Source of the DNA: Candidatus Eiseniibacteriota bacterium
GTDB lineage: Bacteria; Joyebacterota; Joyebacteria; Joyebacterales; Joyebacteraceae
Reading direction: 5' to 3'
Assembly: GCA_030609365.1 (NCBI GenBank)
Contig: JAUWCJ010000002.1
Location: forward strand, 41 to 64,040
DNA length: 64,000 bases
Below, one piece after another: positions 6,492-64,000 of the stretch. The notes under the pieces are model-generated. The model searched no databases, was not told where the DNA came from, and was given only the letters and a program-made list of their open reading frames with translations. The first letter of the stretch is position 1; every line of letters starts with the position of its first letter. The translations under genes were made by a program, and so were the position numbers.

Positions 6492-6586
6492 CGTCTTGAA
6501 CCCCCCGTCAGCACGCCTTCCTCGCCATCCACGTCGGGTTCGCAAGCTCGTCTGAGCGACGGCGCAGTGTGCGCGCTCTCTCGCGC

Positions 6587-20192: not shown

Positions 20193-20666
20193 ATGGGCAA
20201 GACGGTTGCAAGCGACTTCAAACCACGGGTTCTGGTCTTCTGCTGCAACTGGTGCGCGTACGCCGGCGCCGATCTGGCAGGCGTCTCCAGGCTCAAGATA
20301 ACGCCACATTTCCGGGTTATCAGAACCATGTGCTCGGGCCGCGTCGATCCGGAGCTGATTCTCGAGGCCTTCGCCGAGGGAGCGGACGGGGTCATGGTGG
20401 CGGGATGCCACCCCGGTGACTGCCACTACATGGAAGGCAACTACAAGGCCATGCGGCGCATGGCCTTCCTGAAGAAACTGGTCGCGGACCTCGGTCTCGA
20501 ACCGGACAGGCTTGCGCTCGAGTGGGTCTCGGCCGGCGAGGGAGGCAGGTTCCGCGAGGTCATCAACGGGTTCGTCGAGCAGATCATCGAGCTTGGGCCC
20601 AGCCCGATCGGGAAGAGGGCCGAGGCGAGAACCCGCAAGGCGGAGCCGACCGCGGCGAATCAGTAG
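20193..20666 (+). CDS. mvhD: Methyl-viologen-reducing hydrogenase delta subunit MvhD-like (hydrogenase iron-sulfur subunit, PF02662)
   Basis: 157 aa; VLVFCCNWCAYAGADLAG...MVAGCHPGDCHYMEGN is the MvhD/FlpD Cys pattern. SD GGAGGAG upstream. The only unambiguous plus-strand gene in the first 58 kb. Confidence 0.8.
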   Translation: MGKTVASDFKPRVLVFCCNWCAYAGADLAGVSRLKITPHFRVIRTMCSGRVDPELILEAFAEGADGVMVAGCHPGDCHYMEGNYKAMRRMAFLKKLVADLGLEPDRLALEWVSAGEGGRFREVINGFVEQIIELGPSPIGKRAEARTRKAEPTAANQ

Positions 20667-29963: not shown

Positions 29964-31121
29964 CTAGTAGCCTCTCTCCTTGTACACCTCGCGCTGGATG
30001 ATGTACTTCATGATCTCGGTCGTCCCGCCGCCGATGGTCATGAGCCGCGCGTCGCGGAAGAGCTGCTCGGTCTTGCAGTCCTTCGTGTAACCGATACCGC
30101 CCGTCACCTGCAGGGCCGCCGTCGCTATTTCCTGAGCGGACGCGCAGGCCAAGAGCTTCGCCGAAGCGCCCTGCCGTGTCGCCGAAAGGCCCGAGTCGAT
30201 GCGCCGTGCGGCCTGAAGTGTCATCAGCCGTGCCGCGTCCAGCTTGACCGCCATATCGGCGATCTTGAAACTGACGCCTTCGAATCCCCTAATCTCTCTC
30301 CCGAACTGCTCGCGCTCCGTCGAGTACTGGAGGGCGTACTCGAAGGCCGCCCGGGCGTAACCCACGGCGCCCGCCGCCAGCGAGGTGCGTTCTGTGTCCA
30401 GCTCGTCCATGAGGATCCTGAAACCCTTATTTTCCTCGCCGACCATGCTGGACGCGGGCACGCGCGCGTTGTCTATCTTGAGGTGAGAGACCTTGAGACC
30501 CCGGAGCCCCATCAGGTCGTAGTCCTTGACCACGCTGAACGCGGGGTTGTCCGTCTCGAAAATGAACGTGCTCATGCCCTTGCGCGCCTTGACCGAGGGA
30601 TCTGTCACGGCGAACAGGAGCATGTAGTCGGCGAGACTTCCGTTCGTGATGAAGCGCTTCTCGCCGTTGATGACGAACTCGTCGCTGTCACGGACCGCGG
30701 TGGTCTTCATCCCGGCCGTGTCGGAGCCGACGTCCGGTTCGGTGATGCCGATGGCGCCCATCTTCTCGCCCGTGACGATCGGAGGCAGGTACCTGCCCTT
30801 CTGCTCGTCGTTGCCGAACTTGTAGACGGGCGGCGCGAAGTAGACCGACGTCACGCCGCGCGTCACGTCGAGCATCGCGCAGACGGCCGAGATCTCCTCG
30901 GCGATTATGGTCTCGGCGACCATCCCCAGCCCCGTCCCGCCGAACTCCTCGGGAATGAGGGCGCCCATGTAGCCGGCCTTGCCCAACTCGAATAGAAGAT
31001 CGCGCGGGTACTCCGCCGTGTCCTCGATCTCCTGGGCCCGGGGCGCCACGACCCTCTCGGCGAACTCGCGCACCTGCTCGCGATACTCGTTCTCTTCTTC
31101 CGTGTAGAGTACACTGAGCAT
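29964..31121 (-). CDS. Acyl-CoA dehydrogenase
   Basis: 385 aa; ACAD N/M/C domains (…[10 protein letters not shown]…, …QIHGGIGYT-like [11 protein letters not shown]…). AAAGGAA SD. Confidence 0.9.
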
Positions 31122-36276: not shown

Positions 36277-36384
36277 CTCAATACCTCCGGAACGAAAAGG
36301 AATCGTGTCAGTTGCGTCTCAGAGCGGTGGTCCCGCGGTGGGACCCATCCGCGCTCTCGATCGCGCGGCGCATATCCGTGACGG

Positions 36385-37542: not shown

Positions 37543-37601
37543 ATCGTGTTCTCCTGTCAGCAAGTCCTCGTTCACAAGATCGTGGCGTTCCACACGATGG
37601 C

Positions 37602-38648: not shown

Positions 38649-38692
38649 GTAAACCTCTCTTCCCGCCAGCGCGTGTTGCCGTTGACCTTCCG

Positions 38693-46815: not shown

Positions 46816-47964
46816 CTACCCCTTCAGCTCGTGCCCCGCCACCACCAGCTTCTGGATCTCTGACGTGCCCTCGATGATCTCCATCACCCTCGCGTCGCGG
46901 AAGTAGCGCTCGACGGGGTGCAGCTCCCGCACCAGACCTGAGCCGCCGTGCACCTGCAGCGCCTTCGACGCCACGAACGAGGCGGTCTCGGACGCGAAGA
47001 GCTTCGCCATCGCGGCGAGTTCCGAGATCGGCTCCCCGCGATCCGCGGCGGAAGCCGCCTGATACGTCAGTGCGCGGGCCGCCTCGAGTCTCGTCGCCGA
47101 CTCGGCGACCATGAGCTGAACGGCCTGGAACTTCGCTATGGGACGCCCTCCCGTCACGCGTGTCGTGGCGTACGATCGCGCGGCTTCCAGCGCGGCCTGT
47201 CCGATACCGACCGCCATGGCCGCCGCGCCTATCCTCCCCACGTTCAACATGCTCATGGCCATCCTTAACCCTTCGCCCCTCTCACCGACGAGGCGCGACG
47301 CCGGGATGGACACGTCGCGGAAGACCATCCGTCCTACGGGGGCCGCGGTCAGCCCCATCTTGCCGTCGATCTGCGTGCACGTGAGGCCGGCAGCATCGGC
47401 ATCGACCAGAAGCGCGCTCACCTCGTCGCGCTGCCTCACCTTCCCGTCACGCTCTGTCTCTGTCACACCGGTCACGGCGAAGAGCACGATGAGATCGGCC
47501 ACCGGGCCGTTCGTGATGTACATCTTCGTGCCGTTGGCCGTGAACGCGTCTCCCGCAGGATCGGCCTTCGTCGGGACGGAAGGGTCTTCCTCGGTCAGGG
47601 CGAACGCCCCGACCTTGCTGGAAGCAAGACCGGGAAGCACCGCGTCCTTCATCTCGTCGGACGCGAACTCCGCAATGAGGGCAGCCACGAGCGAACTGTG
47701 GATGGACATGACGAGCGCGGTGCTCGCGTCACAGCGCGCCAGCTCTTCGACGGCCGTCGCGTGCTCGAGCGCGCTCAGACCCCGCCCGCCGTACTGCTCG
47801 GGCACGAGCAGTCCCATGAGCCCGGCCTTGAACATCGCCTCGATGACGGCGCGGTCGTAGGTGGCGGACCGGTCCATCTCGGCCGCTCGCGGGAGCACCT
47901 CGCGCTCAGCGAACTCACGCGCCCAGGCGCGGGTCTCTTTCTGCTGATCGTTCAAATCGAACAT
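46816..47964 (-). CDS. Acyl-CoA dehydrogenase
   Basis: 382 aa, ACAD fold, AGAGGGAA SD. Confidence 0.9.
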   Translation of the reverse strand: MFDLNDQQKETRAWAREFAEREVLPRAAEMDRSATYDRAVIEAMFKAGLMGLLVPEQYGGRGLSALEHATAVEELARCDASTALVMSIHSSLVAALIAEFASDEMKDAVLPGLASSKVGAFALTEEDPSVPTKADPAGDAFTANGTKMYITNGPVADLIVLFAVTGVTETERDGKVRQRDEVSALLVDADAAGLTCTQIDGKMGLTAAPVGRMVFRDVSIPASRLVGERGEGLRMAMSMLNVGRIGAAAMAVGIGQAALEAARSYATTRVTGGRPIAKFQAVQLMVAESATRLEAARALTYQAASAADRGEPISELAAMAKLFASETASFVASKALQVHGGSGLVRELHPVERYFRDARVMEIIEGTSEIQKLVVAGHELKG

Positions 47965-47993: not shown

Positions 47994-48398
47994 CTAGCCG
48001 CGCTTCGTGGCGACGATCTCGCGGATGTATGCGGCGATCTCACGCGTGTCACTGCCGGGTCCGAAGAGCCTGTCGACGCCCATCTTCGCGAGTTCGGCCA
48101 TGTCCTCGGCCGGAATAACACCACCCCCGGTCACGACGACATCGTCCGCGCCCGCCTCCTTCAGGAGCTTGAGGACACGCGGGAACATCGTCATGTGCGC
48201 ACCGGAGAGGATGCTCAGCGCGACGACGTCGACGTCTTCCTGAATGGCGGCGTTGACTATCATCTCGGGCGTCTGGTGAAGGCCCGTATAGATGACCTCC
48301 ATGCCCGCGTCCCTGAGGGCGCTCGCGACCACCTTGGCGCCGCGGTCGTGGCCGTCAAGCCCGGGCTTCGCTACCAGAACACGGATTCGGTCTGCCAT
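47994..48398 (-). CDS. Cobalamin (B12)-binding small subunit of an acyl-CoA mutase
   Basis: 134 aa; DxHxxG motif ([13 protein letters not shown]) and a Rossmann-like B12-binding domain. Directly downstream of the mutase large subunit. Confidence 0.85.
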
Positions 48399-48480: not shown

Positions 48481-50157
48481 CTACCAATAGATGGGCGGTT
48501 CGCGGTACTCCCCGAACACCTCCCTCAACACGTCTATCATCTCGCCCTCGGTGGCATAAACGCGGCAGCAATCGATGAAGTGCGGCATGAGATTGTCGGT
48601 GCCCTCTGCCGCCGCGCGCAGACCTGCCAGCGCTGCCGTGACACCAGCATCGTCGCGGTCGCGCCTGACGTCACTCAGGACCTTCTTCTGCCGCACCTCA
48701 ACCTCGGGGCCGATCCTGAGAAGGTCTATCTTGATCTCCTCGCCCTCGTCGACGTAGTCGTTCACGCCGACGACGATCCTCTTCTTCTCTTCGATCTCGC
48801 GCTGATACCTGAAGGCGGCCCTCGCGATCTCGCGCTGGAAGAAACCCTTCTCGATCGCAGGGATGACGCCGCCCAGCTTCTCGATCTGCTCGAAGTACTC
48901 GCGGCAACCCTTCTCCATCTTGTCGGTCAGCGCCTCGACGTAGTAGGAACCTCCCAGCGGATCGATGACGTTCGCAACGCCGGATTCAAACGCGATGACC
49001 TGCTGAGTCCGGAGCGCTACGTGCACGGCCTCCTCCGACGGGAGCGCCAGTGTCTCGTCCATCGAGTTCGTGTGCAGGCTCTGCGTGCCGCCCATTACCG
49101 CCGCCAGGCCCTCGAGGGCGGTCCGGACCACGTTGTTGAACGGCTGCTGGGCCGTCAGACTGCACCCGGCGGTCTGCGTGTGGAACCGCATGAGCCATGA
49201 CTTCGGGTTCTTCGCGCCGTACTTCTCGCGCATGTCGGTCGCCCAGATGCGGCGCGCCGCGCGGAACTTCGCCACTTCCTCGAAGAAGTCCAAGTGCGAG
49301 TTGAAAAAATGCGAGAGCCTGGGCGCGAACTCGTCGACGTCCATGCCGGCCGCTATCCCCGCCTCCACGTACGCGAACCCGTCCGCGAGCGTGAACGCGA
49401 GTTCCTGCAGCGCGGTGGACCCGGCCTCGCGGATGTGATAGCCGCTGATGGAGATGGTGTTCCACTGCGGCACGTGCTCGGCACAGTAGGACATGATGTC
49501 GGTGATGATGCGCATCGATGGGTTCGGCGGGAAGATCCACGTCTTCTGAGCGATGTACTCCTTCAGGAGGTCGTTCTGAAGAGTCCCCCGGAGCGTCTCG
49601 GACGGCACGCCCTGTTTCTCGCCCACGCAGATGTACATCGCGAGCAGCACGGCCGCCGGCGCGTTGATGGTCATCGACGTGCTGACCTTGTCCAGCGGGA
49701 TGCCGTCGAACAGGGTCTCCATGTCGCGGAGCGAGTCGATGGCCACGCCGCACACTCCGACCTCGCCCTCGGCGCGCTCGTGGTCCGAGTCGTACCCCAT
49801 GATGGTCGGGAGATCGAACGCTACCGACAGACCCGTCTGTCCATGGTCAAGCAGGAATTTATTCCGCCGGTTCGAATCCTCGGGCGTGCCGAAGCCGGAG
49901 AACTGCCGCATCGTCCACAGACGCCCCCGGTACATGTTGCTCCGCACGCCGCGCGTGTAGGGAAACTCGCCCGGGAAGCTGAGGTCGCGCTCGTAGTCCA
50001 GGTCGGCGATGTCCTCGGGCGTGTAAAGGAGATCGACCTCCTCACCCGAGATGGAGGTGAAGAGAGCGTCGCGCTGCCTGGCGGACGAGGACACCTTCTC
50101 GTCCCAGGCCCTCCGGGCATCCGTTGCCGTGGCGCCCTTCTTCTTTGCATCAGTCAT
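48481..50157 (-). CDS. Acyl-CoA mutase large (catalytic) subunit, paralog 2 (methylmalonyl-/isobutyryl-CoA mutase family)
   Basis: ATG 50157 ([21 protein letters not shown]…) with GGAGG 5 nt upstream; 558 aa, roughly 55-60% identical to 40188..41870. Confidence 0.85.
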
Positions 50158-52132
50158 CACTGCCTCCGATGAGCGCGAGCACCTGCGCCCGCATCTGCCC
50201 AGAGGTGAAGTGTATCGTCGACATGGCACCGGACGGGCAGGCCGCCCCGCAGGTCCCACACCCTTTGCACAGTGCCTCGTTGACGCGCGAGACCTTGTCC
50301 TTCTCGTCGTATGTGATGGCCTCGTACGGACAGACGCTCACGCAGATCCTGCACCCGGAGCACATGTCCTCGTCGACCTTCGCGGATATCGCCTCCATCC
50401 GGACCGTGCCTCGCGCCATGGGGGCGATCGCCGACGACGACGCGGCCTTGGCCTGCGCTACTGCGTCCGGAATATCCTTGGGGCCCTGGCAGCACCCGGC
50501 AACGAAAACGCCCTCGACGGCCGTGTCGACAGGACGAAGCTTCGGGTGCGCCTCCATGAGGAACCGGTCGGATGACTTCGAGAGTTTGAGAAAAGAAGCG
50601 ACGCCGTCGGTCTCCGGCCGCGGCACGAGCCCCACGGCAAGAACGACCATGTCGGCCTCGATCTCGACCGGTTCGCCCATGAGCGTGTCGTCGCCCCGAA
50701 CGATCAGCCGACCCTTTCGCCTGTAGATCTCCGAGACGCTTCCGCGCCGGTAGATGACCCTCTCTTTGCGGACCCGGTCGTAGAACTCCTCGAAGCCCTT
50801 GCCGAAGGCCCGGATGTCCGTGTAGAAAACGGTGATCTCGGCGTCGGGGAGTTTCTCCCTGACCAGATGAGCCTGCTTCGCGGTGTACATGCAGCAGACG
50901 CGTGAGCAGTACTCGTTGCCGACTGTCGCGTCCCTGGAGCCTACGCACTGAAGGAACACCACCGACTTCGGCGCCTCACGGTCAGAGAACCTGACCAGCT
51001 CGCCGCCGGTCGGCCCCCCGGCGCTGACCAACCGCTCGAACTCCAGCGACGTGAGTATGTCGTCGTATCTTCCGTACCCCAGCGCGCCGATCTCGGTCGC
51101 GTCGAATATGTCCATCCCTGTCGCAACAATGATGGTCCCGACCTTGATCTCGACCACCTCATCCTTCGCGTCGTAGTCGATGCACTGCTTGTCGCAGGCC
51201 TCGAGACACTTGCCGCACGCGATGGGGTTGGTCCCCAGGCACTCATCCATGTTGAGAACGTAGGCCGCCGGCACGGCCTGTGGGAACGACTGGTAGATCG
51301 CCTTCCTCGTGGCCAGACCCTCGTCGAACTCGTTGGGTACCGCCACGGGACACACATCAACACAGTCACCGCACGCGGTACATTCGTCCACGTCGACGTA
51401 CCGCGCTCTCTTCCGAATGGTGACAGTGAAACTTCCCACGTAGCCCGAGATGTCCTCGATATCACTGTAGGTCATCAGGTTGATGTTCGGGTGACGGGAG
51501 ACGTCGACCATCTTCGGCGTCAGGATGCACGCCGAGCAGTCGAGCGTGGGGAACGTCTTGTCGAGCTGCGCCATGCGCCCACCAATGGACGGCTCCTTCT
51601 CGACCAGGTGCACCTTGAATCCGGCCTCGGCGATATCGAGCGCAGCCTGTATGCCGGCGATGCCGCCGCCTATGACCAGCGCCTCCGGAGTCACGTCGAT
51701 CTCACGTTCGGTGAGACCCTCCAGGTACCCCGCCCTCGCCACCGCGGAACGCATCAGGTCGATGGCCTTCTCGGTCCCGGCCTCTTTGTCGTCGTGAATC
51801 CACGAGCACTGCTCCCGTATGTTCGCCATCTCAAACATGTAGGGATTCACGCCGGCGGAGACCAGTGCGGCTCGGAACGTCGGCTCATGCATCCTCGGCG
51901 AACACGCTGCGACGACGACGCCCGTGAGGTCGTGCTCCTTGATGTCCGCGCAGATGAGATTCTGCCCGGGGTCGGAGCACATGTACGGGTAGGTCTTGGC
52001 GAGTGCGACGCCGGGGAGCGTTGCGGCCACCTCGGCCACCCTCTCGACATCGACGGTGTGCGAGATGTTGACCCCGCAATGACAGACGTAGACGCCGAGT
52101 CTCTGCTCGCGCGATGTGCTCTTCTCCGCCAC
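50150..52132 (-). CDS. hdrA: Heterodisulfide reductase subunit A (HdrA)-like FAD/Fe-S flavoprotein
   Basis: 660 aa, GTG start with GGAGGAA upstream. N-terminal 4-Cys cluster ([10 protein letters not shown]), FAD motif [16 protein letters not shown], inserted ferredoxin domains ([12 protein letters not shown]; CGKCLEACD) and a C-terminal 2x[4Fe-4S] ([12 protein letters not shown]…[12 protein letters not shown]). Confidence 0.8.
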
Positions 52133-52171
52133 GCATTTCCTCCGGTTCGTGCCGTCTCTGAAGGCCTGCGC

Positions 52172-53146
52172 CTAAGCGCGTGCCTCCGCTATCTTCTCCT
52201 TGAGCGCCGGGACGATCTTGAACAGGTCTCCGACGATGCCGTAGTCGGCCTCTGAGAAGATGGGGGCCTTGGGATCCTTGTTTATGGCGACGATGGTCTC
52301 GGCCGCCTTCATTCCGCTCATGTGCTGGAACTGCCCGCTGATGCCGATCGCGACGTAGAGCTTCGGCTTCACGGTCTTGCCCGAAGACCCGACCTGCCGG
52401 TCCTTCGGGAGCCACCCGGCGTCCACAACGGGTCGCGAGCAACCGACGACTCCGCCCAGGAGACCAGCGAGCTCCTCGACGAGCGCCAGGTTCTCTTCCT
52501 CCTTGATGCCACGCCCCACGGCAATGATGACGTCGGACTTCGTGATGTCCACGTCACCGATGGCGGCCTCCACGTACTGGACAAACCTGCGGAAAGCGGG
52601 CTCGTCGGACACGGGCGTATCGAGTTCGGTCACGCTACCGCTCCGTGCGCCGTCCTCGACCGGGAACGCCGCGGCGCGCACGGTCACGAGGGCGGTTGCC
52701 GAGTCGCGGAAGCTCAACCGCGCGTCGACCTTGCCACCGTAGATCTGCCTGGTAACGGAGACGGCGCCTCCGTCCAGGACGACATCGATGCAGTCGCTCG
52801 CGAGCGGAAGCCCTAGGGCGACGGCGAGGCTCGGCGCCAGGTCGACGCCGAACGCCGTGTGGCCGACCATGACGAGCGAAGGCTCACGCGACTTCACGAC
52901 CTCAGCTATGACCGGCTGGTAGACGGCCGAGTTGAAATCGGTGAGGTTGCCGTGATCGACGACCAGGACCTCGTCCGCGTAGCTCGTGAGCCTGCTCGCC
53001 ATGTCCCTCACTCCCGCGCCCAGCAGCAGCGCGGTCACCGCCCCACCCGAGGCCCCGGCCAGCGCTCCGGCCTTGCCCAGCATCTCGAAGGTGACGTCCC
53101 TGAGTTCGCCTCCTCTGTGTTCCGCAAGAACAAGAATCTCGTTCAT
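52172..53146 (-). CDS. etfA: Electron transfer flavoprotein alpha subunit (EtfA/FixB)
   Basis: 324 aa; C-terminal FAD-binding block …AIGISGQFQHMSGMKAAETIVAINKD…. Confidence 0.9.
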   Translation of the reverse strand: MNEILVLAEHRGGELRDVTFEMLGKAGALAGASGGAVTALLLGAGVRDMASRLTSYADEVLVVDHGNLTDFNSAVYQPVIAEVVKSREPSLVMVGHTAFGVDLAPSLAVALGLPLASDCIDVVLDGGAVSVTRQIYGGKVDARLSFRDSATALVTVRAAAFPVEDGARSGSVTELDTPVSDEPAFRRFVQYVEAAIGDVDITKSDVIIAVGRGIKEEENLALVEELAGLLGGVVGCSRPVVDAGWLPKDRQVGSSGKTVKPKLYVAIGISGQFQHMSGMKAAETIVAINKDPKAPIFSEADYGIVGDLFKIVPALKEKIAEARA

Positions 53147-53935
53147 CTAGACGAACCCTTTCTCCTTCAGAATGTCGGCGAGTTTCCCGGACGCCTCAGA
53201 CGGCGTTCCCTCGAGGATATCCGCGCCCTCACCCACGGGCGGGAACGTAAGCTCCTCGAGCACGGTCCCGGACCCGGCAGCACCGACGGACGACGCATCG
53301 AGACCCATGTCTCCCGCGCTCTTCAGTTCTATCTCTCGTTTCGAGGCCCTGGCGATACCCATGATGGACGCGTAGCGCGGCTCGTTGATGCCGGTCTGGA
53401 TACCCAGCACACACGGCAGCTTGATGGTCAGCTTCTCTATGAGTCCGCCCTCGAGCTCGCGCCCGACCGTCACCTCTCCACTCCCGACCTCGACCTCCGT
53501 AACGTACGTCGCGTGCGGGATGTCCAGAAGCTCGGCCAGGGCGACGCCAACCTGCGTCGCGCCGTCGTCCGAGGCCATGCAGCCCGTGAGGACCAGGTCG
53601 TACTCCACGTCCTTGAGGGCCGCCGCAAGCGCCGTCGCGGTCGCGATGGCGTCGCCGCCGTCGAACGCCGGATCGGCGACACGGACCGCGGTCCCCGCGC
53701 CCTTGGCCATGCTCATGCGGAGGACCTCCTCCGACGACTCGTGGCCGAGGGTCATGATGGTGATGTCACCATCGTGCTCCTCCGTAATGAGGAGCGCCTC
53801 CTCGAGGGCGTAGTTGTCCGACTCGTTTATCTGAAGAGCCAGGCCCTCCTCGACGATGCCCTTCCCGCCGGCCGCGATCTTGAGATCAGCCTCGGCCGTC
53901 TCGGGCACTTGCTTCACACAGACAACGATGTTCAT
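53147..53935 (-). CDS. etfB: Electron transfer flavoprotein beta subunit (EtfB/FixA)
   Basis: ATG 53935 (MNIVVCVKQVPE…) with GGAGAGAG upstream. The ORF-track 5' extension translates a tandem DNA repeat as 'ARRSRV' x4 and is judged non-coding. Confidence 0.85.
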   Translation of the reverse strand: MNIVVCVKQVPETAEADLKIAAGGKGIVEEGLALQINESDNYALEEALLITEEHDGDITIMTLGHESSEEVLRMSMAKGAGTAVRVADPAFDGGDAIATATALAAALKDVEYDLVLTGCMASDDGATQVGVALAELLDIPHATYVTEVEVGSGEVTVGRELEGGLIEKLTIKLPCVLGIQTGINEPRYASIMGIARASKREIELKSAGDMGLDASSVGAAGSGTVLEELTFPPVGEGADILEGTPSEASGKLADILKEKGFV

Positions 53936-53997
53936 GTCTTGGTCTCTCTCCATTACTTCGGTTGCGCGCCTGACCGTGGTCTCCGTCGTGCGCGGCG

Positions 53998-54081
53998 GTG
54001 CCACCCGGGCCCGCCGTGCCACCCGGGATTGTCGTGCCACCCGGGATCGTCGTGCCACCCGGGATCGTCGTGCCACCCGGC
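53998..54081. repeat. Tandem repeat, 18-nt unit GTGCCACCCGGGATCGTC x ~4.7, in the HdrD-like to etfB intergenic leader
   Basis: Copies begin at 53998, 54016, 54034, 54052 and 54070. Each carries the CCCGGG palindrome. Located between the stop at 54086 and the etfB ATG at 53935. Confidence 0.8.
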
Positions 54082-54085
54082 TACG

Positions 54086-55210
54086 CTACAGCGCCATCGC
54101 CGCTAGTTCGGCGAGATCGATTATCTCTATTTTCCCCTCGTTGCCGCTGGTCTTGACCGCATCCTCGAGCGTCATGAGGCAGAACGGACAGGCGGTAACA
54201 AGGTAGTCCGCGCCCAGCTCGACCGCGTCCTTGACGCGGGTCTCTGCCAGCCGTTCTCCCCGCTCCTCCGTCGCCTCCAGCCACATGCGACCGCCGCCAC
54301 CCTCGCAGCAGAGCGCACGCTCACGCGAGCGGTCCATCTCCTCGAACGTCACGCCCGGGATCTGCTCGAGCACCTCACGCGGTTCATCGTAGATGCCGTT
54401 GTGCTTACCCAGGAAGCACGCGTCGTGGAAGGTCACCTTCTTTTCAACTTTCCCCTTGAACGTCAGTTTCCCGGCCTCCAGAAGTGAGGCGAGAAGCTGC
54501 GAGTAGTGAACGACGTCCGGCGTCGGCTCACCGTACTCGTTCTTGAACGTGTTCATGCAGTGCGGTGACGCCGTGACGATCGTGCCGACCTCGTGACCGC
54601 CGAACAGTTCCCGATTCCCCTCGACCAGCATCTCGAAGAGACCGTCCTCTCCCATCCGCCGGATCTCGTTCCCGCAGCACGACTCATCGGTTCCCAGCGT
54701 CGAGTACTCGACGCCCGCGGCGGCAAAGAGCGCGACCAGCGCCTTCGCAATGGACTGCGCCCTCGGATCGTAGGCCGGTGTGCAGCCGACGTAGAACAGA
54801 AACGGCACGGCCTCGCCCTCTGCGGCGACGGGCACGGAAAGCTCGTCCGCCCACTCCGTACGCTTGTCGCGTATCCGCCCCCAGGGGTTGCCGTGCTTGA
54901 ACGTGCTCTCGAGCGCGTCACGGATCGTCGGCTCGATCCGCCCCTTCTCAATGGCCGCCGAGCGGAGGCCGATGATGAGCTCCATCGGCTTCACCCCCTT
55001 CGGACAACGCTCCGTACAGTTCGAGCACGTCGTGCAGTTCCACGCCTCCGGGCGTCCCTTGGCATCCGTTGGACCGACGCCGGTCATGCCGTCGTACACC
55101 ACCCTGCGCACGTTCAGGTACGTCCGCATGGAAACGGGACAGCCGGCCGTGCAGCGTCCGCACTGGATGCACCCGAGGAGTTCGTACTTCTCCTGCAGTG
55201 AAACAGCCAT
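54086..55210 (-). CDS. HdrD/GlcF/LutA-like soluble Fe-S oxidoreductase (two 4Fe-4S motifs plus two CCG domains)
   Basis: ATG 55210 (MAVSLQEKYELLGCIQCGRCTAGCP…). Second ferredoxin motif CTTCSNCTERCP. CCG domains (…SCCG…, …PHC…, …LCCEGGGG…, …TACPFC…). No TM segments. Confidence 0.8.
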   Translation of the reverse strand: MAVSLQEKYELLGCIQCGRCTAGCPVSMRTYLNVRRVVYDGMTGVGPTDAKGRPEAWNCTTCSNCTERCPKGVKPMELIIGLRSAAIEKGRIEPTIRDALESTFKHGNPWGRIRDKRTEWADELSVPVAAEGEAVPFLFYVGCTPAYDPRAQSIAKALVALFAAAGVEYSTLGTDESCCGNEIRRMGEDGLFEMLVEGNRELFGGHEVGTIVTASPHCMNTFKNEYGEPTPDVVHYSQLLASLLEAGKLTFKGKVEKKVTFHDACFLGKHNGIYDEPREVLEQIPGVTFEEMDRSRERALCCEGGGGRMWLEATEERGERLAETRVKDAVELGADYLVTACPFCLMTLEDAVKTSGNEGKIEIIDLAELAAMAL

Positions 55211-55304
55211 GCTAGTTTCTTCTCCCGTCCGACCCACTCGGGGCGCCGCCTCACACCACGCCTTCCGGCTGGCGCCCGTCCGTAATCTCGTGCCTCGCTG
55301 CGGC

Positions 55305-56447
55305 CTACCTCAGCGCGTTGCGGGCGATGACTATCTTCTGGATCTCGCTCGTGCCCTCGTAGATTTCGATAATCTTGGCGTCGCGATACATCCGCTCGAC
55401 CGCATACTCCTTGGAGTAGCCGTTCCCGCCGTGTATCTGCACGGCCATGCGCGCGACCGCGACCACCGTCTCGGCGGCGAAGTACTTCGCGATCGCCGCC
55501 TCGCGCGTGAACCTCTTGGCGCCCGCGTCCTTCATCGACCCGGCCCGATAGACGAGCAGCCTAGCCGCATCGGTCTGCGCCGACATCTGGGCGATCATGT
55601 CCTGGATCATCTCGAACTCTGCGATAGGCTTCCCGAACTGGACGCGCTCCTTGGCGTACTTGATGGAGGCGTCGAGAGCGCCCTGTGAGATACCGACGCC
55701 CTGCGCGCCGATGTCGATGCGGGAAACGTCGAGCGTATGCATGACGACCTTGAAACCGCCGCCCTCCTCACCCAGGAGATTCTCCTTGGGAACGATGCAC
55801 TCGTCCATGATGAGCTCGCAGTTACCGGTCGCGCGGATGCCCATGAGGTTCTCGTGCTTACCGACGCTGAAGCCCTCGAAGTCCTTGTCGACGATGAACG
55901 CGCTCATGCCCTTGTGGCGCTGCTCGGGGTCGGTGTACGCAAAGATGACGAACGTCCCGGCATCGGTCCCGTTCGTGATCCACGCCTTGGTTCCGTTCAG
56001 CACGTAGTGGTCGCCCTTGTCGACGGCCGTCGTCTCCATGCCCGCGGGGTCGGAGCCCGCATTCGCTTCCGTGATACCGATGGCGCCGAACTTCTTCCCT
56101 GAACAGAGGTCGGGCAGGTACTGCCTGCGCTGCTCCTCGGTTCCGAAGTGATAGATGGGATAGGCACACAAGGAGTTGTTGACCGCGGTGATGACGCCGT
56201 GCGAGGCGCACACGCGAGAGATCTCCTCGCAGATGATAGCGAGGGTCGTGAAGTCCAGGCCCGCCCCGCCGTACTTCTCGGGAATAACGACACCCATGAG
56301 TCCGAGCCCGGCCATCTTCTTGAGCGAGGCCGTCGGAAACTCGCGACTCTCGTCTATCTCAGCAGCGATAGGCTCGAGCTCCTTCTCCGCGAATTCGCGC
56401 ACCATGTCGCGGACCATCTTCTGATCCTGGGTGAGTGCGAAGTCCAT
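55305..56447 (-). CDS. Acyl-CoA dehydrogenase
   Basis: 380 aa, ACAD fold (…GITEANAGSD…, …QIHGGNGYSKEY…). GGAAGGGAG SD. Confidence 0.9.
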   Translation of the reverse strand: MDFALTQDQKMVRDMVREFAEKELEPIAAEIDESREFPTASLKKMAGLGLMGVVIPEKYGGAGLDFTTLAIICEEISRVCASHGVITAVNNSLCAYPIYHFGTEEQRRQYLPDLCSGKKFGAIGITEANAGSDPAGMETTAVDKGDHYVLNGTKAWITNGTDAGTFVIFAYTDPEQRHKGMSAFIVDKDFEGFSVGKHENLMGIRATGNCELIMDECIVPKENLLGEEGGGFKVVMHTLDVSRIDIGAQGVGISQGALDASIKYAKERVQFGKPIAEFEMIQDMIAQMSAQTDAARLLVYRAGSMKDAGAKRFTREAAIAKYFAAETVVAVARMAVQIHGGNGYSKEYAVERMYRDAKIIEIYEGTSEIQKIVIARNALR

Positions 56448-56487: not shown

Positions 56488-57453
56488 CTAGGACGTCCTT
56501 CCGTCCATGCTGTCTATCACTTCCCTGGCAACCTGATAAGGGGATCTGTGCCCCCTGGTTACGTCTCCGATCATCGAGTCGAGCCCTGACTCGCCGCCGA
56601 GCCGCTCGTAGAGCTCCCGCTCGAGCGAATCGACCACGATGCCCCGAACCTGCGACTTGAAGTGGTCGCGCCTGCGTTTCTGAAGGAGTTCGTGCTCGGT
56701 CAGAAACGCCCTGTGTTCGTCGATCGTCCCGGCGATCTCAGCCACACCCTCGCCGGTCGTCGCGACGGACCTGAGTACCGGCGGCATCCACCCGAGCGAC
56801 GGATCTCTGAGCAGGAGCATCGACTTGATCTCCTCCACCGTCATGTCGCCGCCATCCCTGTCGGCCTTGTTGACCACGAAGATCTCACCGATCTCCATGA
56901 GTCCGGCCTTCATTGCCTGGATGCTGTCGCCGGATTCAGGCACGAGCACTATGACCGTGGTGTCGGCGGTCCCCGCGATATCCAGTTCCGACTGTCCGAC
57001 GCCGACCGTCTCGAAGATGACGTAGTCGAAACCCGCCGCGTCCATCACCGCCGCGACGCTCGGAGCGGAGCGCGACAGTCCGCCCAGACCGCCACGGGTC
57101 GCCATGCTGCGAATGAAGACGCCTTCCCTGATCCCCAGCCGCTGCATACGGACGCGGTCGCCCAGAAGCGCGCCGCCCGTGAAGGGGCTGGTCGGGTCGA
57201 CCGCGATGATACCGACGGTGCTCCCTTCATCCAGAAGGTGCTCGGTCAGGCCATCGACAAGCGTGCTCTTCCCCGCACCTGGCGGCCCTGAGATCCCTAT
57301 CCGGTAGGACCTCCCGATGTCCGGATAGACGACATCGAGGAGTTCCAGACCGCGCGGGTCCTCGTTCTCTATCCAGGAAATGGCCCGCGCCAGCGCGAGC
57401 GCGTCGCCATTCTTCAGTCTCTCGACCAGCTCCGGGACACTTGCGCTCCTCAA
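56488..57453 (-). CDS. meaB: Methylmalonyl-CoA mutase-associated GTPase MeaB/ArgK (G3E family)
   Basis: TTG start; P-loop GISGPPGAGKST, a VNKADRDGGD block (NKxD-like) and G3E-family similarity. Confidence 0.85.
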   Translation of the reverse strand: MRSASVPELVERLKNGDALALARAISWIENEDPRGLELLDVVYPDIGRSYRIGISGPPGAGKSTLVDGLTEHLLDEGSTVGIIAVDPTSPFTGGALLGDRVRMQRLGIREGVFIRSMATRGGLGGLSRSAPSVAAVMDAAGFDYVIFETVGVGQSELDIAGTADTTVIVLVPESGDSIQAMKAGLMEIGEIFVVNKADRDGGDMTVEEIKSMLLLRDPSLGWMPPVLRSVATTGEGVAEIAGTIDEHRAFLTEHELLQKRRRDHFKSQVRGIVVDSLERELYERLGGESGLDSMIGDVTRGHRSPYQVAREVIDSMDGRTS

Positions 57454-57486: not shown

Positions 57487-58014
57487 CTAGAACTCGATGC
57501 CCTCTCGCGCCTCGACCCCGGCGTCGTAGTGATGCTTGATATTCAGCACCTCACTGACAAGGTCCGCCGCCCTCACGATACTCGGGTGAGCGGAGCGGCC
57601 TGTCAGAACGAGCTCGACGTGCGGGGGTCTCGTCTCGATAAGAGAAAGGACGTCCTCGATACGTATCAGCGCGAAGTCGAGCGCCACGTTGACTTCATCG
57701 AGGATGACGATATCGTACTCGCCGCTTGCGACGGCCACGCGGGCCTTCTCGAGGCCCTGGACGGCAAGGTCGATGTCAACCTGCGCCGGGCTCTTCTTGT
57801 CGACGAACTCGTCGCGGCCGGACTGTTCGATGATGAAGCCCGGGAGCTTCGCGGCGGACGTCAGCTCGCCGTAGTTCGAGCTGCCCTTCATGAACTGCAG
57901 CATGTAGACGGAGAGCCCGTGTCCAACGGCGCGGAGAGCCAGGCCGAGCGCGGCGGTCGTCTTGCCCTTCCCGTCTCCGGTGTAGACCTGTACGGTACCA
58001 TGCCTCTTGGGCAC
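57487..58014 (-). CDS. cobO: Cob(I)yrinic acid a,c-diamide (ATP:corrinoid) adenosyltransferase CobO/BtuR
   Basis: GTG 58014 with GGAGG 5 nt upstream. HGTVQVYTGDGKGKTTAALGLALRA is the CobA/CobO P-loop signature; 176 aa. The ORF-track 5' extension is unsupported. Confidence 0.8.
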   Translation of the reverse strand: MPKRHGTVQVYTGDGKGKTTAALGLALRAVGHGLSVYMLQFMKGSSNYGELTSAAKLPGFIIEQSGRDEFVDKKSPAQVDIDLAVQGLEKARVAVASGEYDIVILDEVNVALDFALIRIEDVLSLIETRPPHVELVLTGRSAHPSIVRAADLVSEVLNIKHHYDAGVEAREGIEF

Positions 58015-58477
58015 TGGGGCCTCCGCAGGATTGCTGGAGCGCCGACTGTACGTAGACCAACGCTTCGACGCTTGAGCCTCGAATCTCAAATTGCGCGGGC
58101 GTCGGCGGGCGCCCGCGCAGGCTGGAACTGCCAAATCCCGCAAATGTTAGCATGCAGTGGGCCTAGCGTCAAGAACGGTTCAGCGAGCACGCTCCGGGTT
58201 CGCCGCCGCCGGGCGTCGAAATCGTTCCCCGAGCACGCGTGGTGGCTGGCGCGGGCATACCGACCGTTGCCCCAGGCCGGAGGTGCCTCCGGATACGCCA
58301 ATCCGGACTGACTCTGAATTCAGGGATCAGCCGCGTTGCCAACTCGGGGAAACCCGACTCGCCCTCAGATTATTCTTGACGACCTGTCCCACATTTGATA
58401 CCGTTCCGTTGTTTCCAACATTCACTTGGTCTGCCGTGAGTTTTGGTGCACCGTCACGTACTATAGGAGGTAGAGGG

Positions 58478-59060: not shown

Positions 59061-59201
59061 GCCCGCCCGGCACCCCGCGTCATGACACCCGCCACGCACC
59101 CTGGCACCCCGGCCAGCAGACGCGGGAGACGCGCCGCACAGCCTGCCACCCCGGCCCGCAGACGTCCGAGACCCGCCGCGCATCCTTGACGCACTGTGCC
59201 G

Positions 59202-59230
59202 TTTCAAGCGCGTCCTGCCTGTGGTATAAT
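59202..59230 (+). promoter_or_regulatory. Sigma70-type promoter with extended -10 for the beta-propeller gene
   Basis: TTTCAA, a 17-nt spacer, then TGgTATAAT (59222-59230). SD GGTGGAGG sits 6 nt before the ATG at 59250. A roughly 35-nt imperfect direct repeat (CACCCCGGCC.GCAGACG.C.GAGAC.CGCCGC) occurs twice upstream (59105-59190). Confidence 0.55.
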
Positions 59231-59249
59231 GGCTGGTGGAGGTAACAGA

Positions 59250-60725
59250 ATGAAAAGCGTAGTCATCATACTGTGTGGAATGCTGCTCGCGGGCGCCGCC
59301 GCCGCAGAGACCCCGCCGGACACCCTGTGGGCCAGGGAGTTCGGGGGCGGTCAGTTCGAATGGGGCAGATCGGTCCAGGAAACGCAGGACGGGGGATTCA
59401 TCACCGTCGGTGACACCTACTCCTACGGCACGGGCGGCTTCGACGTGTGGCTTATCAAGACCGACGGGGGTGGCAACAAGACCTGGGCAAAGACGTACGG
59501 TGGCATCTATGAGGACCGCGGCTACTCGGTCCGCCAGACCGCCGACGGCGGCTATGTCATCGCAGGCGTGACGGGCTCCTACGGAGCCGGTACCTACGAT
59601 ATCTGGCTGATCAAGACCGATGGCGCCGGCCACGTTTCGTGGTCCAAGACCTTCGGCGGAAGCGCCTGGGACTGGGGCTACTCCGTTGAGCAGACCGCGG
59701 ACGGGGGCTACGTGCTCGTGGGCTACACGGAGTCCTTCGGGCCGGGGGACAGCGCTCTCTGGCTCATCCGGACCGACAGCGCGGGCGACACGCTGTGGAC
59801 CAGGACCGTCGGAGGAGAAAGCTCCGACTGGGGCGAATCTGTTCAGGTGTGCTCGGACGGGGGATACCTCGTCGCGGGAAGCACATACTCCTTCGGCGCG
59901 GGAAGCCGCGACGTGTGGCTCGTCAGGACAGACAGTGCCGGCGATACGCTGTGGACGAGAGCCTTCGGCGGCGGCGCTTCCGACGGCGGCCTCGACGTCA
60001 CGCAAACGCCGGACGGAGGATGCCTCCTCACCGGGTACACGAAGTCCTTCGGGGCGGGGCTGGACGATGTCTGGCTCATCCGCACCGACAGCAGCGGCGA
60101 CACGCTGTGGACGCGAACATACGGAGGGGCGCAGTCTGACGGGGGCGAGTCCATCGATCTGTGCTACGAGGGCGGCTGCATAGTTGCCGGTCACACGAAG
60201 TCGTTCGGCGCCGGCGGTGACGACTTCTGGCTTATCAGGGTGCTCGACAACGGCGACACCCTCTGGACGAAGACACTCGGAGGAAGCGACCACGACTGGG
60301 CAAGATCGGTGCGCCAGTGCTCGGACGGTGGGTACGTCGTCGCTGGCGACACATACTCGTTCACCGAGGGCGAATACGACATCTGGCTGGCCCGGCTCGC
60401 TCCCGGGACGGGTGTGCAGGCGACGGCCGAACTCAGATCTGCTCTGCGCGACCTTCGGAGCTACCCGAACCCGTTCGGTCCCTCCGCCACGACTGCCACG
60501 ATCGAGTTTGAGACGGTCACACCGGGTATCGTCTCGGTGAACGTATATGACGTCTGCGGACGGATGGTCAGAAGCATCGTTCGCTCGGAGCTGCCCGCCC
60601 AGCAGTACCGCCTCTCCTGGGACGGCACCGACGACGCCGGCAGAAGGATGCCCTCCGGGACCTACTTCTGCAAAGTCGAACTTGCCGGCGACACCATTGC
60701 AGAGAAGATGACATTCCTGAGATAG
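59250..60725 (+). CDS. Secreted 8-bladed beta-propeller repeat protein with T9SS C-terminal sorting domain
   Basis: Signal peptide MKSVVIILCGMLLAGAAAA. Eight ~47-aa repeats (WxxTxGGxxxDxGxSVxQTxDGGYxxxGxTxSFGAG..DxWLI(K/R)TDxxGDTLW). C-terminus YPNPFGPSATTATIEFET…VNVYDVCGRMVRSI…GTYFCKV…MTFLR is a Por_Secre_tail. Confidence 0.85.
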   Translation: MKSVVIILCGMLLAGAAAAETPPDTLWAREFGGGQFEWGRSVQETQDGGFITVGDTYSYGTGGFDVWLIKTDGGGNKTWAKTYGGIYEDRGYSVRQTADGGYVIAGVTGSYGAGTYDIWLIKTDGAGHVSWSKTFGGSAWDWGYSVEQTADGGYVLVGYTESFGPGDSALWLIRTDSAGDTLWTRTVGGESSDWGESVQVCSDGGYLVAGSTYSFGAGSRDVWLVRTDSAGDTLWTRAFGGGASDGGLDVTQTPDGGCLLTGYTKSFGAGLDDVWLIRTDSSGDTLWTRTYGGAQSDGGESIDLCYEGGCIVAGHTKSFGAGGDDFWLIRVLDNGDTLWTKTLGGSDHDWARSVRQCSDGGYVVAGDTYSFTEGEYDIWLARLAPGTGVQATAELRSALRDLRSYPNPFGPSATTATIEFETVTPGIVSVNVYDVCGRMVRSIVRSELPAQQYRLSWDGTDDAGRRMPSGTYFCKVELAGDTIAEKMTFLR

Positions 60726-63395: not shown

Positions 63396-63415
63396 CCGTG
63401 TTTCTCCTTGTTGTG

Positions 63416-64000
63416 CTATTTCAGCAGGATCATCTTCCTCGCGGACGTGAATCCACCGGAACTGATCCGATAGAAGTAGATTCCGCTTCCCACTGGCTCG
63501 CCGTCGTCGCTCTTCCCGCGCCACACAACCTCGTGTGCTCCAGCCGACCTGTGCTCGTCGACCAGCGTAGCCGTCCTCTGACCACACACGTTGTAGACCT
63601 CGACGGTCACGTGTCCCGCCGTGGGGATGCTGTACGCGATGGTCGTCACAGGGTTGAACGGGTTCGGGTGGTTCTGCGACAGTGTGACGACACCCGGGAC
63701 GACATCGTCACAGGGGTCGTCGACACCGGTCGCGACGCCGAACCAGTCAACCGCGTCCTGGATGAGCATCCTTCTGTCCGCCTCGCTGGTAAACTGCGAC
63801 AGATCGAACGTCATGAAAAACGACTTGTAGATGAGGTTGTCCAGCCAGATGCCGGCGCCCAACTCGTACGCGTATGCGTAGCCACCGATCGGACCGTCCT
63901 CGAACGCGAAGGAAGCCCACGACCAGAGTTCGGGGTTCGAGACCTGGTCGGCGTACCAGTCCGGGCAGTCATCATTGACAATGACATCGGGGCTGTTGGA
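63416..64000 (-). CDS. Large secreted T9SS-tailed protein, tandem paralog 2 (3' end only; the gene continues past the window end)
   Basis: DNA from 63416 to 64000 is about 85% identical to 60819-61400. Encodes …YAYGYELGAGIWLDNLIYKSFFMTFDLSQFTSEADRRMLIQDAVDWFG…NHPNPFNPVTTIAYSIPTAGHVTVEVYNVCGQRTATLVDE…GIYFYRISSGGFTSARKMILLK. The reading frame is open to position 64000. Confidence 0.75.
   Translation of the reverse strand, partial: SNSPDVIVNDDCPDWYADQVSNPELWSWASFAFEDGPIGGYAYAYELGAGIWLDNLIYKSFFMTFDLSQFTSEADRRMLIQDAVDWFGVATGVDDPCDDVVPGVVTLSQNHPNPFNPVTTIAYSIPTAGHVTVEVYNVCGQRTATLVDEHRSAGAHEVVWRGKSDDGEPVGSGIYFYRISSGGFTSARKMILLK

Follow-up and report, generated by a model that had tools for sequence, protein, structure and literature searches.

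A 64,000-nucleotide (nt) stretch of contig JAUWCJ010000002.1 from a Candidatus Eiseniibacteriota bacterium (assembly GCA_030609365.1), which as a whole we call the window, carries five consecutive genes for an acyl-CoA dehydrogenase (ACAD1), a soluble HdrD-like iron-sulfur protein, the EtfB and EtfA subunits of an electron-transferring flavoprotein (ETF) and an HdrA-type flavoprotein. We propose that the acyl-CoA dehydrogenase (ACAD), EtfAB, the HdrD-like protein and HdrA would form one cytoplasmic electron-transfer unit in which bifurcation or confurcation takes place at HdrA and not at the ETF, and we put the probability of this reading at about 0.6. The gene identities, motif states and conserved synteny are the observed part of it. 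Open reading frames (ORFs) and Pfam domains agree with the original prediction for this stretch on the five genes, their coordinates and their common direction, all on the minus strand with small gaps (Table 1). The best homologues place the organism among Candidatus Eisenbacteria. The interpretation given there, in which HdrA links the acyl-CoA/enoyl-CoA couple to ferredoxin within a soluble complex, is still the best one; HdrA is complete, the HdrD-like protein soluble and the synteny conserved.

HdrA is the predicted bifurcating or confurcating FAD and ferredoxin site. Its residues 9-652 align with residues 3-647 of M. thermolithotrophicus HdrA (5ODC_A, 830 bits), and it is about 58% identical to methanogen HdrA, with the same domains and all cofactor ligands. 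The four-domain architecture is complete (N-terminal Cys-cluster domain, thioredoxin reductase-like FAD domain, and one inserted and one C-terminal ferredoxin domain). The window protein has all the Cys motifs of 5ODC_A, namely C17/C19/C52/C77/C109, C199/C202, two CxxCxxCxxxC sets, the C...C...CC set C396/C409/C413/C414 and two C-terminal ferredoxin sets, and the GxGxxG FAD motif and a DCSxC pair are conserved as well. The original claim of a full-length HdrA is thus confirmed, and a truncated or GltD-like flavoprotein is ruled out by the full-length alignment and the conserved ligands. K419 aligns with K409 of 5ODC_A, which Wagner et al. are said to have described in 2017 as the residue beside the flavin N5; a conserved Lys near the flavin is a published hallmark of HdrA.

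Among NCBIfam models the best fit is HdrA2, which is matched from position 1 to 641 of its 777 and gives 929 bits (cut-off 1100); the HdrA model gives 662 bits (cut-off 1400). Since these scores fall below the cut-offs, we regard the window protein as a member of the family and not as an equivalog of the methanogen enzymes. The product of the separate mvhD gene matches positions 645-774 of the HdrA2 model and, because the two together cover this model, HdrA and MvhD correspond to a split HdrA2-like protein. MvhD is a candidate adaptor from HdrA to a mid-potential partner. The lone mvhD that the original prediction offered as the partner of HdrA does exist, but it is not linked to the module here: the two are 30 kb apart and on opposite strands, and mvhD is flanked by unrelated genes, though it adjoins HdrA in many relatives.

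The HdrD-like protein is predicted to be the docking site of the ETF and the wire to HdrA. It combines an HdrC-like domain (two CxxCxxCxxxCP motifs, eight Cys) with two CCG (non-cubane-cluster) domains, and starts 13 residues ahead of the first ferredoxin Cys, directly with the HdrC-like dicluster domain. Against M. smegmatis EtfD (9OJN) it scores 224 bits over EtfD residues 409-741 (EtfD has 1042 residues), compared with 25-28 bits against HdrB. The top Foldseek match of its structure model was also 9ojn (E 1.5e-20, 38% identity over about 320 residues), with HdrC and HdrB far behind; the N-terminal ferredoxin domain of the model had a confidence score (pLDDT) below 50, and the fold match alone was used. 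No transmembrane segment is predicted (maximum 19-residue Kyte-Doolittle mean 1.44), in line with the solubility originally claimed. Membrane anchoring was rejected on this basis together with the lack of an HdrE-like gene.

Alignment of the HdrD-like family shows the eight Cys of the HdrC-like domain to be invariant and reveals C143, C178-C179 and S215-P-H217-C218 as invariant in the first CCG domain, with two relatives carrying CPHG in place of SPHC, and C265, C301-C302, W310 (within a CCEGGGGRMW insertion) and C341-P-F343-C344 as invariant in the second. The CCG domains accordingly carry nine Cys and one His (H217), with Ser (S215) in place of a Cys in the first CxxC. Genuine HdrB proteins (at loci L002, L011, L048 and L062) instead read CPAC at the first site and CGMC or CPLC at the last, and they lack the Trp insertion (local MAFFT alignment). 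A catalytic heterodisulfide reductase role was rejected from this comparison and from the closeness to EtfD. In BamD, the proximal non-cubane cluster is held by five Cys and one His, a Cys-to-Ser change remodels the distal cluster, which has four Cys, and His230, Trp325 and Tyr356 occupy the heterodisulfide pocket (bioRxiv 10.64898/2026.04.10.717634). In EMO/EtfD, a His blocks the coenzyme M (CoM) site and the distal cluster is variable, and the non-cubane clusters of both BamD and EMO exchange electrons with an ETF without disulfide cleavage (2026 literature). The His/Trp/aromatic spacing is +93/+33 in the HdrD-like protein and +95/+31 in BamD, the latter taken from its published description. 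Judged by its motifs, and with BamD compared by description, the HdrD-like protein appears to fit the published BamD/EMO signature for ETF docking, and we predict that it works like the cytoplasmic half of EMO.

The ETF itself is predicted to be of the canonical AMP type, with one FAD and one AMP. The best match of EtfB in the Protein Data Bank is the AMP-containing Methylophilus W3A1 ETF (1O94_C), and its motif reads ASDDGATQVG compared with AIDGDTAQVG of the bifurcating type, with Asp at the position of the invariant Gly123. The bifurcating EtfB proteins 6FAH_B, 5OL2_B, 4KPU_B and 7KOE_A (CarD, C. difficile, A. fermentans and T. maritima) all have DGDT(A/G)QVG, and Gly is absent from this position in 45 of the 45 EtfB proteins adjoining HdrD-like relatives. 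The Gly123 criterion (room for the beta-FAD) has been published together with an experimentally canonical ETF carrying a bulky residue there (PMC12630350). EtfA contains the alpha-FAD motif PKLYVAIGISGQFQHMSG and has no N-terminal ferredoxin domain or extension. Because Asp replaces Gly123 and the closest solved relative is AMP-type, the ETF is predicted to be non-bifurcating; bifurcation sited at the Etf was rejected on the EtfB motif, and the classical Bcd-Etf flavour seen by the original prediction has to be dropped. That prediction also named a non-bifurcating ETF as one of its refutations. Such an ETF is indeed what we predict, but it refutes solely bifurcation at the Etf and leaves the coupling at HdrA standing; canonical ETFs dock on the homologous BamD and EMO. 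The ETF in the cryo-electron microscopy structure of the EMO:EtfAB complex is AMP-type (2026 literature).

ACAD1 is a short-chain, Bcd-like enzyme and the predicted electron donor to the ETF (or the acceptor in reverse). Its best NCBIfam models are AcrC and Acd, both below cut-off. It is 88-91% identical to its counterparts in the Eisenbacteria loci and 59-66% identical to the proteins in the same position at L010, L014 and L023.

A pattern scan of one genome per species gave at least 588 relatives of the HdrD-like protein, of which the best 80 were examined. These derive from Eisenbacteria, Chloroflexota/Anaerolineae, Thermodesulfobacteriota (including Syntrophaceae and Syntrophorhabdus), Bathyarchaeia, Bacillota, Acetothermia and Deferrisomatales. 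Neighbouring genes were identified by tblastn with the window proteins and counted within 6 kb of the HdrD-like gene at the 43 loci having at least 4 kb on both sides. Eisenbacteria, Chloroflexota, Thermodesulfobacteriota, Bathyarchaeia and Bacillota are represented among these loci. An HdrA-type gene is present at 41/43 loci (full-length HdrA at 26/43), MvhD at 27/43, EtfAB at 22/43 and ACAD at 17/43. HdrA, EtfAB and ACAD occur together at 16/43 loci, which span at least five phyla including Bathyarchaeia. By group, co-occurrence of HdrA, Etf and ACAD amounts to 2/2 in Eisenbacteria, 10/23 in Thermodesulfobacteriota/delta, 3/22 in Bathyarchaeia, 4/5 in unclassified genomes and 1/28 in Chloroflexota, where most HdrD-like genes have HdrA paralogues on their flanks.

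The gene order is very unlikely to have arisen by chance. The Eisenbacteria contigs L004-L006 share the identical order CobO-MeaB-ACAD-HdrD-like-EtfB-EtfA-HdrA-mutase-B12-ACAD-MBL (metallo-beta-lactamase-fold protein), kept at 73-78% protein identity. L010 and L023 have ACAD-HdrD-like-EtfB-EtfA-HdrA-MvhD, followed in L010 by CobO-MeaB-mutase, and in the Bathyarchaeia loci L019, L020 and L026 the string HdrA-MvhD-EtfB-EtfA-ACAD is divergent from the HdrD-like gene. A mutase follows the module in L004-L006, L009, L010, L013 and L080. Conservation of the linkage in relatives, archaea included, is therefore borne out by identical order in L004-L006 and recurrence in several phyla. Two ferredoxin-type genes and a NAD_binding_1/DHODB_Fe-S gene (Pfam) come after HdrA-MvhD at L032 (Bacillota) and L068 (Thermodesulfobacteriota) and make up a FlxCBA-like NAD(P)H module. 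Flx-like genes, with weak tblastn matches, also follow HdrA-MvhD(FlxD) beside the HdrD-like gene at L046, L050 and L074, and L002 has a NuoF-like gene and additional Hdr genes upstream.

Two other layouts were observed among the relatives. At ten Anaerolineae loci (L011, L018, L022, L033, L034, L042, L054, L058, L062 and L064), the HdrD-like gene lies between an N-terminal HdrA fragment of about 430 residues and a 560-residue HdrA-like gene; most of them add a 1000-residue HdrA-like gene, MvhD and a 375-residue Fer4 protein, some have HdrBC nearby, and none has EtfAB within 6 kb. These loci seem to encode another kind of multi-HdrA assembly that uses the same HdrD-like module. In L068, a Thermodesulfobacteriota metagenome-assembled genome, a gene of the aldehyde:ferredoxin oxidoreductase (tungsten AOR) family (L068:16661-18490) lies directly 3' of HdrD-like-HdrA-MvhD-FlxCBA, a layout resembling that of the BamB-containing benzoyl-CoA reductase.

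In the mechanism proposed here, we infer that the proteins form a complex and that the ETF docks, and likewise the roles of ferredoxin and a third partner and the direction of electron flow. Family knowledge and the motif test suggest that the ACADs of the operon, acting in the branched-chain amino-acid route, would reduce the canonical EtfAB, and that this ETF would serve as a one-flavin carrier. By homology, the HdrD-like protein would receive the FAD domain of this ETF at its two non-cubane clusters, as EMO and BamD do. The HdrD-like protein would bind HdrA in the way HdrBC and BamD do, and its two cubane clusters would carry the electrons to HdrA. At the HdrA FAD, the high-potential electron from the ETF would join a low-potential electron from reduced ferredoxin; the binding and this step are suggested by HdrA homology and synteny. 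The electron pair would exit to a mid-potential acceptor, probably via MvhD and, in relatives, to NAD(P)+ via FlxABC-like or NuoF-like subunits. The unit would be reversible and, running backwards, would be an HdrA-based functional analogue of Bcd-EtfAB, in which NAD(P)H reduces ferredoxin and enoyl-CoA.

With ferredoxin at about -450 to -500 mV and the acyl-CoA couple at about -10 mV, the two electrons average about -230 to -255 mV by an estimate from textbook potentials, and the potential of NAD+ is -320 mV. Given this average, reduction of NAD+ or H+/CO2 would need a low NADH/NAD+ ratio or low H2/formate, together with removal of enoyl-CoA. We estimate these energetics to be tight but typical for such organisms.

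Several points weigh against our proposal. In the oxidative direction with NAD+, the reaction is the reverse of the exergonic Bcd-Etf reaction and by estimate feasible solely at low NADH/NAD+ or low H2/formate with highly reduced ferredoxin. No gene for a mid-potential partner was found in the operon or the window by Pfam annotation of essentially all predicted ORFs, and more specifically no hydrogenase, formate dehydrogenase, Flx or NuoF-like gene. Exact-sequence searches with HdrA and MvhD for a wider context yielded only contigs of 1.6-4.5 kb. The window contains multihaem cytochrome genes, and a respiratory sink for the ETF may be encoded elsewhere in the genome. At 20/43 loci HdrA and the HdrD-like gene occur without EtfAB within 6 kb, and clusters of HdrA with an HdrBC fusion, MvhD and MetVF have been published for Chloroflexi. 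Because half of the loci lack EtfAB, and because of this MetVF pairing, we consider the HdrA/HdrD-like pair to be a general module with exchangeable high-potential partners.

The least unlikely alternative, which we nevertheless regard as improbable, is that the same complex runs in the opposite direction: NAD(P)H, H2 or formate would act through MvhD as the mid-potential donor, whose electrons would be bifurcated at HdrA to ferredoxin and the ETF, and the ETF would pass them on either to enoyl-CoA reduction via the ACAD or, in the manner of benzoyl-CoA reductase, to membrane EMO and quinone. In that case the module would serve as an enoyl-CoA reductase that generates ferredoxin, or as an electron sink. 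This direction is thermodynamically downhill by analogy with Bcd-Etf, and the best NCBIfam score of ACAD1 is to the acryloyl-CoA reductase model AcrC. It has been shown for BamDEF-ETF (bioRxiv 10.64898/2026.04.10.717634). However, the surrounding 35 kb encode an oxidative branched-chain amino-acid route with ACADs acting as dehydrogenases (Leu/Val dehydrogenases, methylcrotonyl- and propionyl-CoA carboxylases, mutases, hydratases, a 3-hydroxyacyl-CoA dehydrogenase and thiolases), and no 2-hydroxyacyl-CoA dehydratase or other reductive-branch gene was seen. Next in order, and likewise unlikely, is that the neighbours have separate functions, HdrA and the HdrD-like protein being a Hdr/Flox-type enzyme that acts on another acceptor such as a disulfide, a DsrC-like protein or methylene-tetrahydrofolate. 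The loci without EtfAB, the MetVF clusters and the hint of respiration given by the multihaem cytochrome genes all speak for this. Against it, the HdrD-like protein carries the blocked, non-catalytic Ser/His/Trp signature and is far nearer to the ETF-accepting EtfD than to HdrB, its gene sits between ACAD and EtfB in one operon whose order is maintained among the Eisenbacteria at the protein identities given above, and EtfAB is the commonest non-Hdr neighbour across phyla.

We consider it very unlikely that an EtfAB with a second FAD handles NAD(H) itself and HdrA is an accessory. EtfB and EtfA score nearly equally against CarDE and C. difficile Etf as against the W3A1 ETF, and the EtfB motif keeps the ...TQVG ending; yet the invariant Gly123 is replaced by Asp here, is found in 0/45 of the neighbouring EtfB proteins, the nearest solved homologue binds AMP, and EMO and BamD are docked by AMP-type or non-bifurcating ETFs. 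Most improbable of all is that HdrA and the HdrD-like protein feed very low-potential electrons to the reductive activation or reactivation of the B12 of the co-transcribed mutase, together with CobO and MeaB. In its favour, the end of HdrA overlaps the beginning of the mutase gene, the operon starts with CobO and MeaB, and a mutase follows the module in several loci, but most related loci, including all those of Bathyarchaeia, have the module without a mutase, and a six-cluster bifurcating flavoprotein would be disproportionate for an occasional repair reaction.

The five module genes look like one operon, to judge from spacing and signals. The window has a G+C content of 64%, and one long minus-strand gene string runs from about 58.1 kb down to about 22.6 kb, with no terminator-like site inside it in our scan. 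A purine-rich, Shine-Dalgarno-like sequence precedes every module start, and a promoter-like site was found at the head of the string, where the true CobO start probably lies further downstream than the annotated one. The start of the HdrD-like protein (ATG 55210) is backed by 374-residue homologues with 100% coverage, and that of EtfB (ATG 53935) by homologues in the Protein Data Bank beginning MNIVVC. The EtfB and EtfA genes abut. The overlap of the HdrA stop with the mutase start reported earlier stands at 8 nt (ATGACTGA), with the mutase start corrected to the ATG at 50157, and the mutase large subunit is translationally coupled to HdrA. The spacer between the HdrD-like and EtfB genes (150 nt) is mostly filled by an 18-nt tandem repeat with 4 matches compared with 0.25 expected, and no further copy was found elsewhere in the window. 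This spacer is far shorter in relatives (64 nt in L004, 16 nt in L006). The repeat gives a spurious N-terminal extension of the EtfB ORF (ARRSRV repeats).

Table 1. Positions of the module genes and of other features in the 64,000-nt window
Feature	Position	Strand	Length	Annotation
Promoter-like site	58172-58144			just upstream of CobO; promoter scan
Corrinoid adenosyltransferase CobO	57487..58143	-		Pfam; first operon gene
MeaB GTPase	56488..57453	-		Pfam; near operon head
Acyl-CoA dehydrogenase 1 (ACAD1)	55305..56447	-	380 aa	Pfam Acyl-CoA_dh_N/M/1
Soluble HdrD-like / BamD-EMO-like Fe-S protein	54086..55210	-	374 aa	Pfam Fer4_8 + 2x CCG
18-nt tandem repeat	53998..54080			4.6 copies, 92% matches; coding-strand unit CCGGGTGGCACGACGATC
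EtfB	53147..53935	-	262 aa	Pfam ETF (beta subunit)
EtfA	52172..53146	-	324 aa	Pfam ETF + ETF_alpha
HdrA	50150..52132	-	660 aa	Pfam FAD/Pyr_redox_2 + two ferredoxin-type regions
Acyl-CoA mutase large subunit	48481..50157	-		Pfam MM_CoA_mutase; context gene
B12-binding small subunit of mutase	47994..48398	-		Pfam B12-binding; context gene
Acyl-CoA dehydrogenase 2 (ACAD2)	46816..47964	-	382 aa	Pfam; same position in L004-L006
Acyl-CoA dehydrogenase 3 (ACAD3)	29964..31121	-	385 aa	Pfam; adjoins methylcrotonyl-CoA carboxylase-type genes
MvhD	20193..20666	+	157 aa	PF02662, E 7.6e-55

According to Pfam, the gene string is a branched-chain amino-acid and short acyl-CoA catabolic supercluster. It starts with CobO, MeaB, the five-gene module, a mutase (large and B12 subunits), ACAD2 and an MBL-fold protein, continues with propionyl-CoA carboxylase-type genes, a second mutase and a Leu/Val dehydrogenase, and then with a trio of 3-hydroxy-3-methylglutaryl (HMG)-CoA-synthase-like, thiolase and DUF35 genes. 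After this trio come methylcrotonyl-CoA carboxylase-type genes, followed by those for an enoyl-CoA hydratase and ACAD3. Next are a butyrate-kinase-like gene and genes for a hydratase and a second Leu dehydrogenase, and then BirA, thymidine kinase, a 3-hydroxyacyl-CoA dehydrogenase and a thiolase. ACAD2 is likely an additional client of the ETF, and ACAD3 is likely an isovaleryl-CoA dehydrogenase and ETF client.

Large subunits of acyl-CoA mutases are encoded twice in the window, once in coupling with HdrA (Table 1) and once at 40188-41870 beside the propionyl-CoA carboxylase genes. The latter reads KEYAARGTHIY, and the HdrA-coupled mutase has Gln where this one has Arg. We take this to be the site of the carboxylate-binding Arg207 of methylmalonyl-CoA mutase, occupied by Gln in isobutyryl-CoA-type mutases. 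Because Gln replaces Arg, the HdrA-coupled enzyme is probably of the isobutyryl-CoA type (isobutyryl-/butyryl-CoA), with a separate methylmalonyl-CoA mutase at 40188-41870. Within the leucine degradation cluster, the HMG-CoA-synthase-like, thiolase and DUF35 (ChsH2 OB-fold/zinc-ribbon) genes stand in a row at 35881-38699; the archaeal-type acetoacetyl-CoA thiolase/HMG-CoA synthase complex is made up of such a trio.

Outside the gene string, three large secreted-type proteins (2754-6818, 59196-60725 and 60819-63587) have a C-terminal FlgD-Ig-like domain resembling a sorting tail. One of them is a 1354-residue gingipain-like Peptidase_C25, and a secreted protease is consistent with a protein- and amino-acid-degrading lifestyle. 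An ORF at 6587-7654 with a cytochrome c554/c-prime-type multihaem domain may hint at respiratory electron sinks in the organism. A 465-residue soluble protein with Fer4 and two CCG domains (GlcF/HdrD-like) is encoded directly downstream of an FAD_binding_4 protein (469-1866 and 1863-2747); this looks like a GlcEF pair of the glycolate oxidase or D-lactate dehydrogenase type, unrelated to the Etf module.

No redox step of anaerobic fatty- and amino-acid degradation is harder than the transfer of electrons from acyl-CoA oxidation (about -10 mV) to H+, CO2 or NAD+. To our knowledge, its sole established solution is the membrane-bound EMO/menaquinone reverse redox loop. Tentatively, and with the odds somewhat against it, the ACAD-EtfAB-(soluble EMO/BamD-like)-HdrA(-MvhD-Flx) set might be a widespread, undescribed thirteenth kind of flavin-based bifurcating system, in which ETF electrons are confurcated with reduced ferredoxin onto NAD(P)+ or H+/CO2. 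Twelve systems were listed in a 2018 census of bifurcating enzymes, none of the ACAD-EtfAB-HdrD-like-HdrA kind, and no description of such a unit was found in the searchable full-text literature, which leaves subscription journals outside. If true, quinone-independent anaerobes (Eisenbacteria, Anaerolineae, Bathyarchaeia, some Syntrophaceae and Bacillota) could oxidise acyl-CoA to enoyl-CoA by a second solution, driven by ferredoxin in place of proton-motive force, with a soluble system where classical syntrophs use the reverse redox loop of membrane-bound EMO. The ferredoxin could come, for example, from 2-oxoacid:ferredoxin oxidoreductases, and in that case the stoichiometry would be 1:1 per amino acid. 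The presence of beta-oxidation genes in abundant uncultured lineages, including Bathyarchaeia and Anaerolineae, would be explained, and the canonical ETF as high-potential arm of HdrA bifurcation would extend from benzoyl-CoA reductase to mainstream catabolism. The module is a defined set of four or five genes, open to expression and assay.

Comparison with known systems places the BamDEF-ETF branch as the closest functional precedent and the cytoplasmic half of EMO/EtfD as the closest sequence relative. As in Bcd-EtfAB, CarCDE and Ldh-EtfAB, an ACAD lies beside EtfBA, and the predicted chemistry joins acyl-CoA/enoyl-CoA, ferredoxin and pyridine nucleotide; in contrast to these, the window ETF lacks the beta-FAD signature, and the bifurcating flavin is predicted to be in HdrA. 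The FlxABCD-HdrABC systems of sulfate reducers and syntrophs resemble some relatives of the module, where HdrA-MvhD(FlxD) is followed by Flx-like genes, and differ in that HdrBC is replaced by the ETF-type HdrD-like protein and in that the window has no flxABC. With HdrABC-MvhAGD and HdrA2B2C2 of methanogens, the module shares HdrA, an HdrBC-like partner and the coverage of HdrA2 by HdrA and MvhD. Unlike them, the HdrD-like protein has no open catalytic site (SPHC for CPAC, Trp insertion), the window system has no metabolism of CoM and coenzyme B, and its high-potential substrate is predicted to be the ETF and not a heterodisulfide.

EMO/EtfD (S. aciditrophicus SYN_02638; M. smegmatis 9OJN), which takes electrons from an AMP-type ETF fed by acyl-CoA dehydrogenases, shares the HdrC-like and non-cubane-cluster domains and the His of the PH(C/G) motif. 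The HdrD-like protein is nonetheless not an EMO because it lacks the N-terminal five-helix haem b membrane domain and, with it, a quinone site and coupling to proton-motive force. It also keeps both Cys of the first CCG motif, where MsEMO has Thr, and its partner is HdrA instead of the quinone pool.

The original prediction saw no characterised parallel for the arrangement, which no longer holds. In the class II benzoyl-CoA reductase of G. metallireducens, cryo-electron tomography and assays have shown a non-bifurcating ETF on BamD as the high-potential output of the HdrA-type BamE (bioRxiv 10.64898/2026.04.10.717634). In both systems a soluble HdrBC-fusion protein (BamD carries two cubane clusters, a non-cubane cluster with a His ligand and a distal cluster that is modified) goes with an HdrA-type bifurcating flavoprotein, and the non-bifurcating ETF docks on the non-cubane clusters in the one and is predicted to do so in the other. 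By the description of BamD, the two proteins appear to have in common the nine Cys and one His, the Cys-to-Ser change and a matching His/Trp/aromatic spacing, and BamDEF-ETF is connected to an NAD(P)H module by an MvhD-type adaptor. No gene of the AOR family (BamB-type) and no BamC, BamG, BamH or BamI gene was found among the window ORFs. The window HdrA is a single methanogen-like protein of 660 residues, whereas Bam has a fused double HdrA with selenocysteine. In contrast to the Bam system, the window ETF appears to be wired to the ACADs of amino-acid catabolism, and electrons likely flow from ETF to HdrA, that is, in the direction of confurcation.

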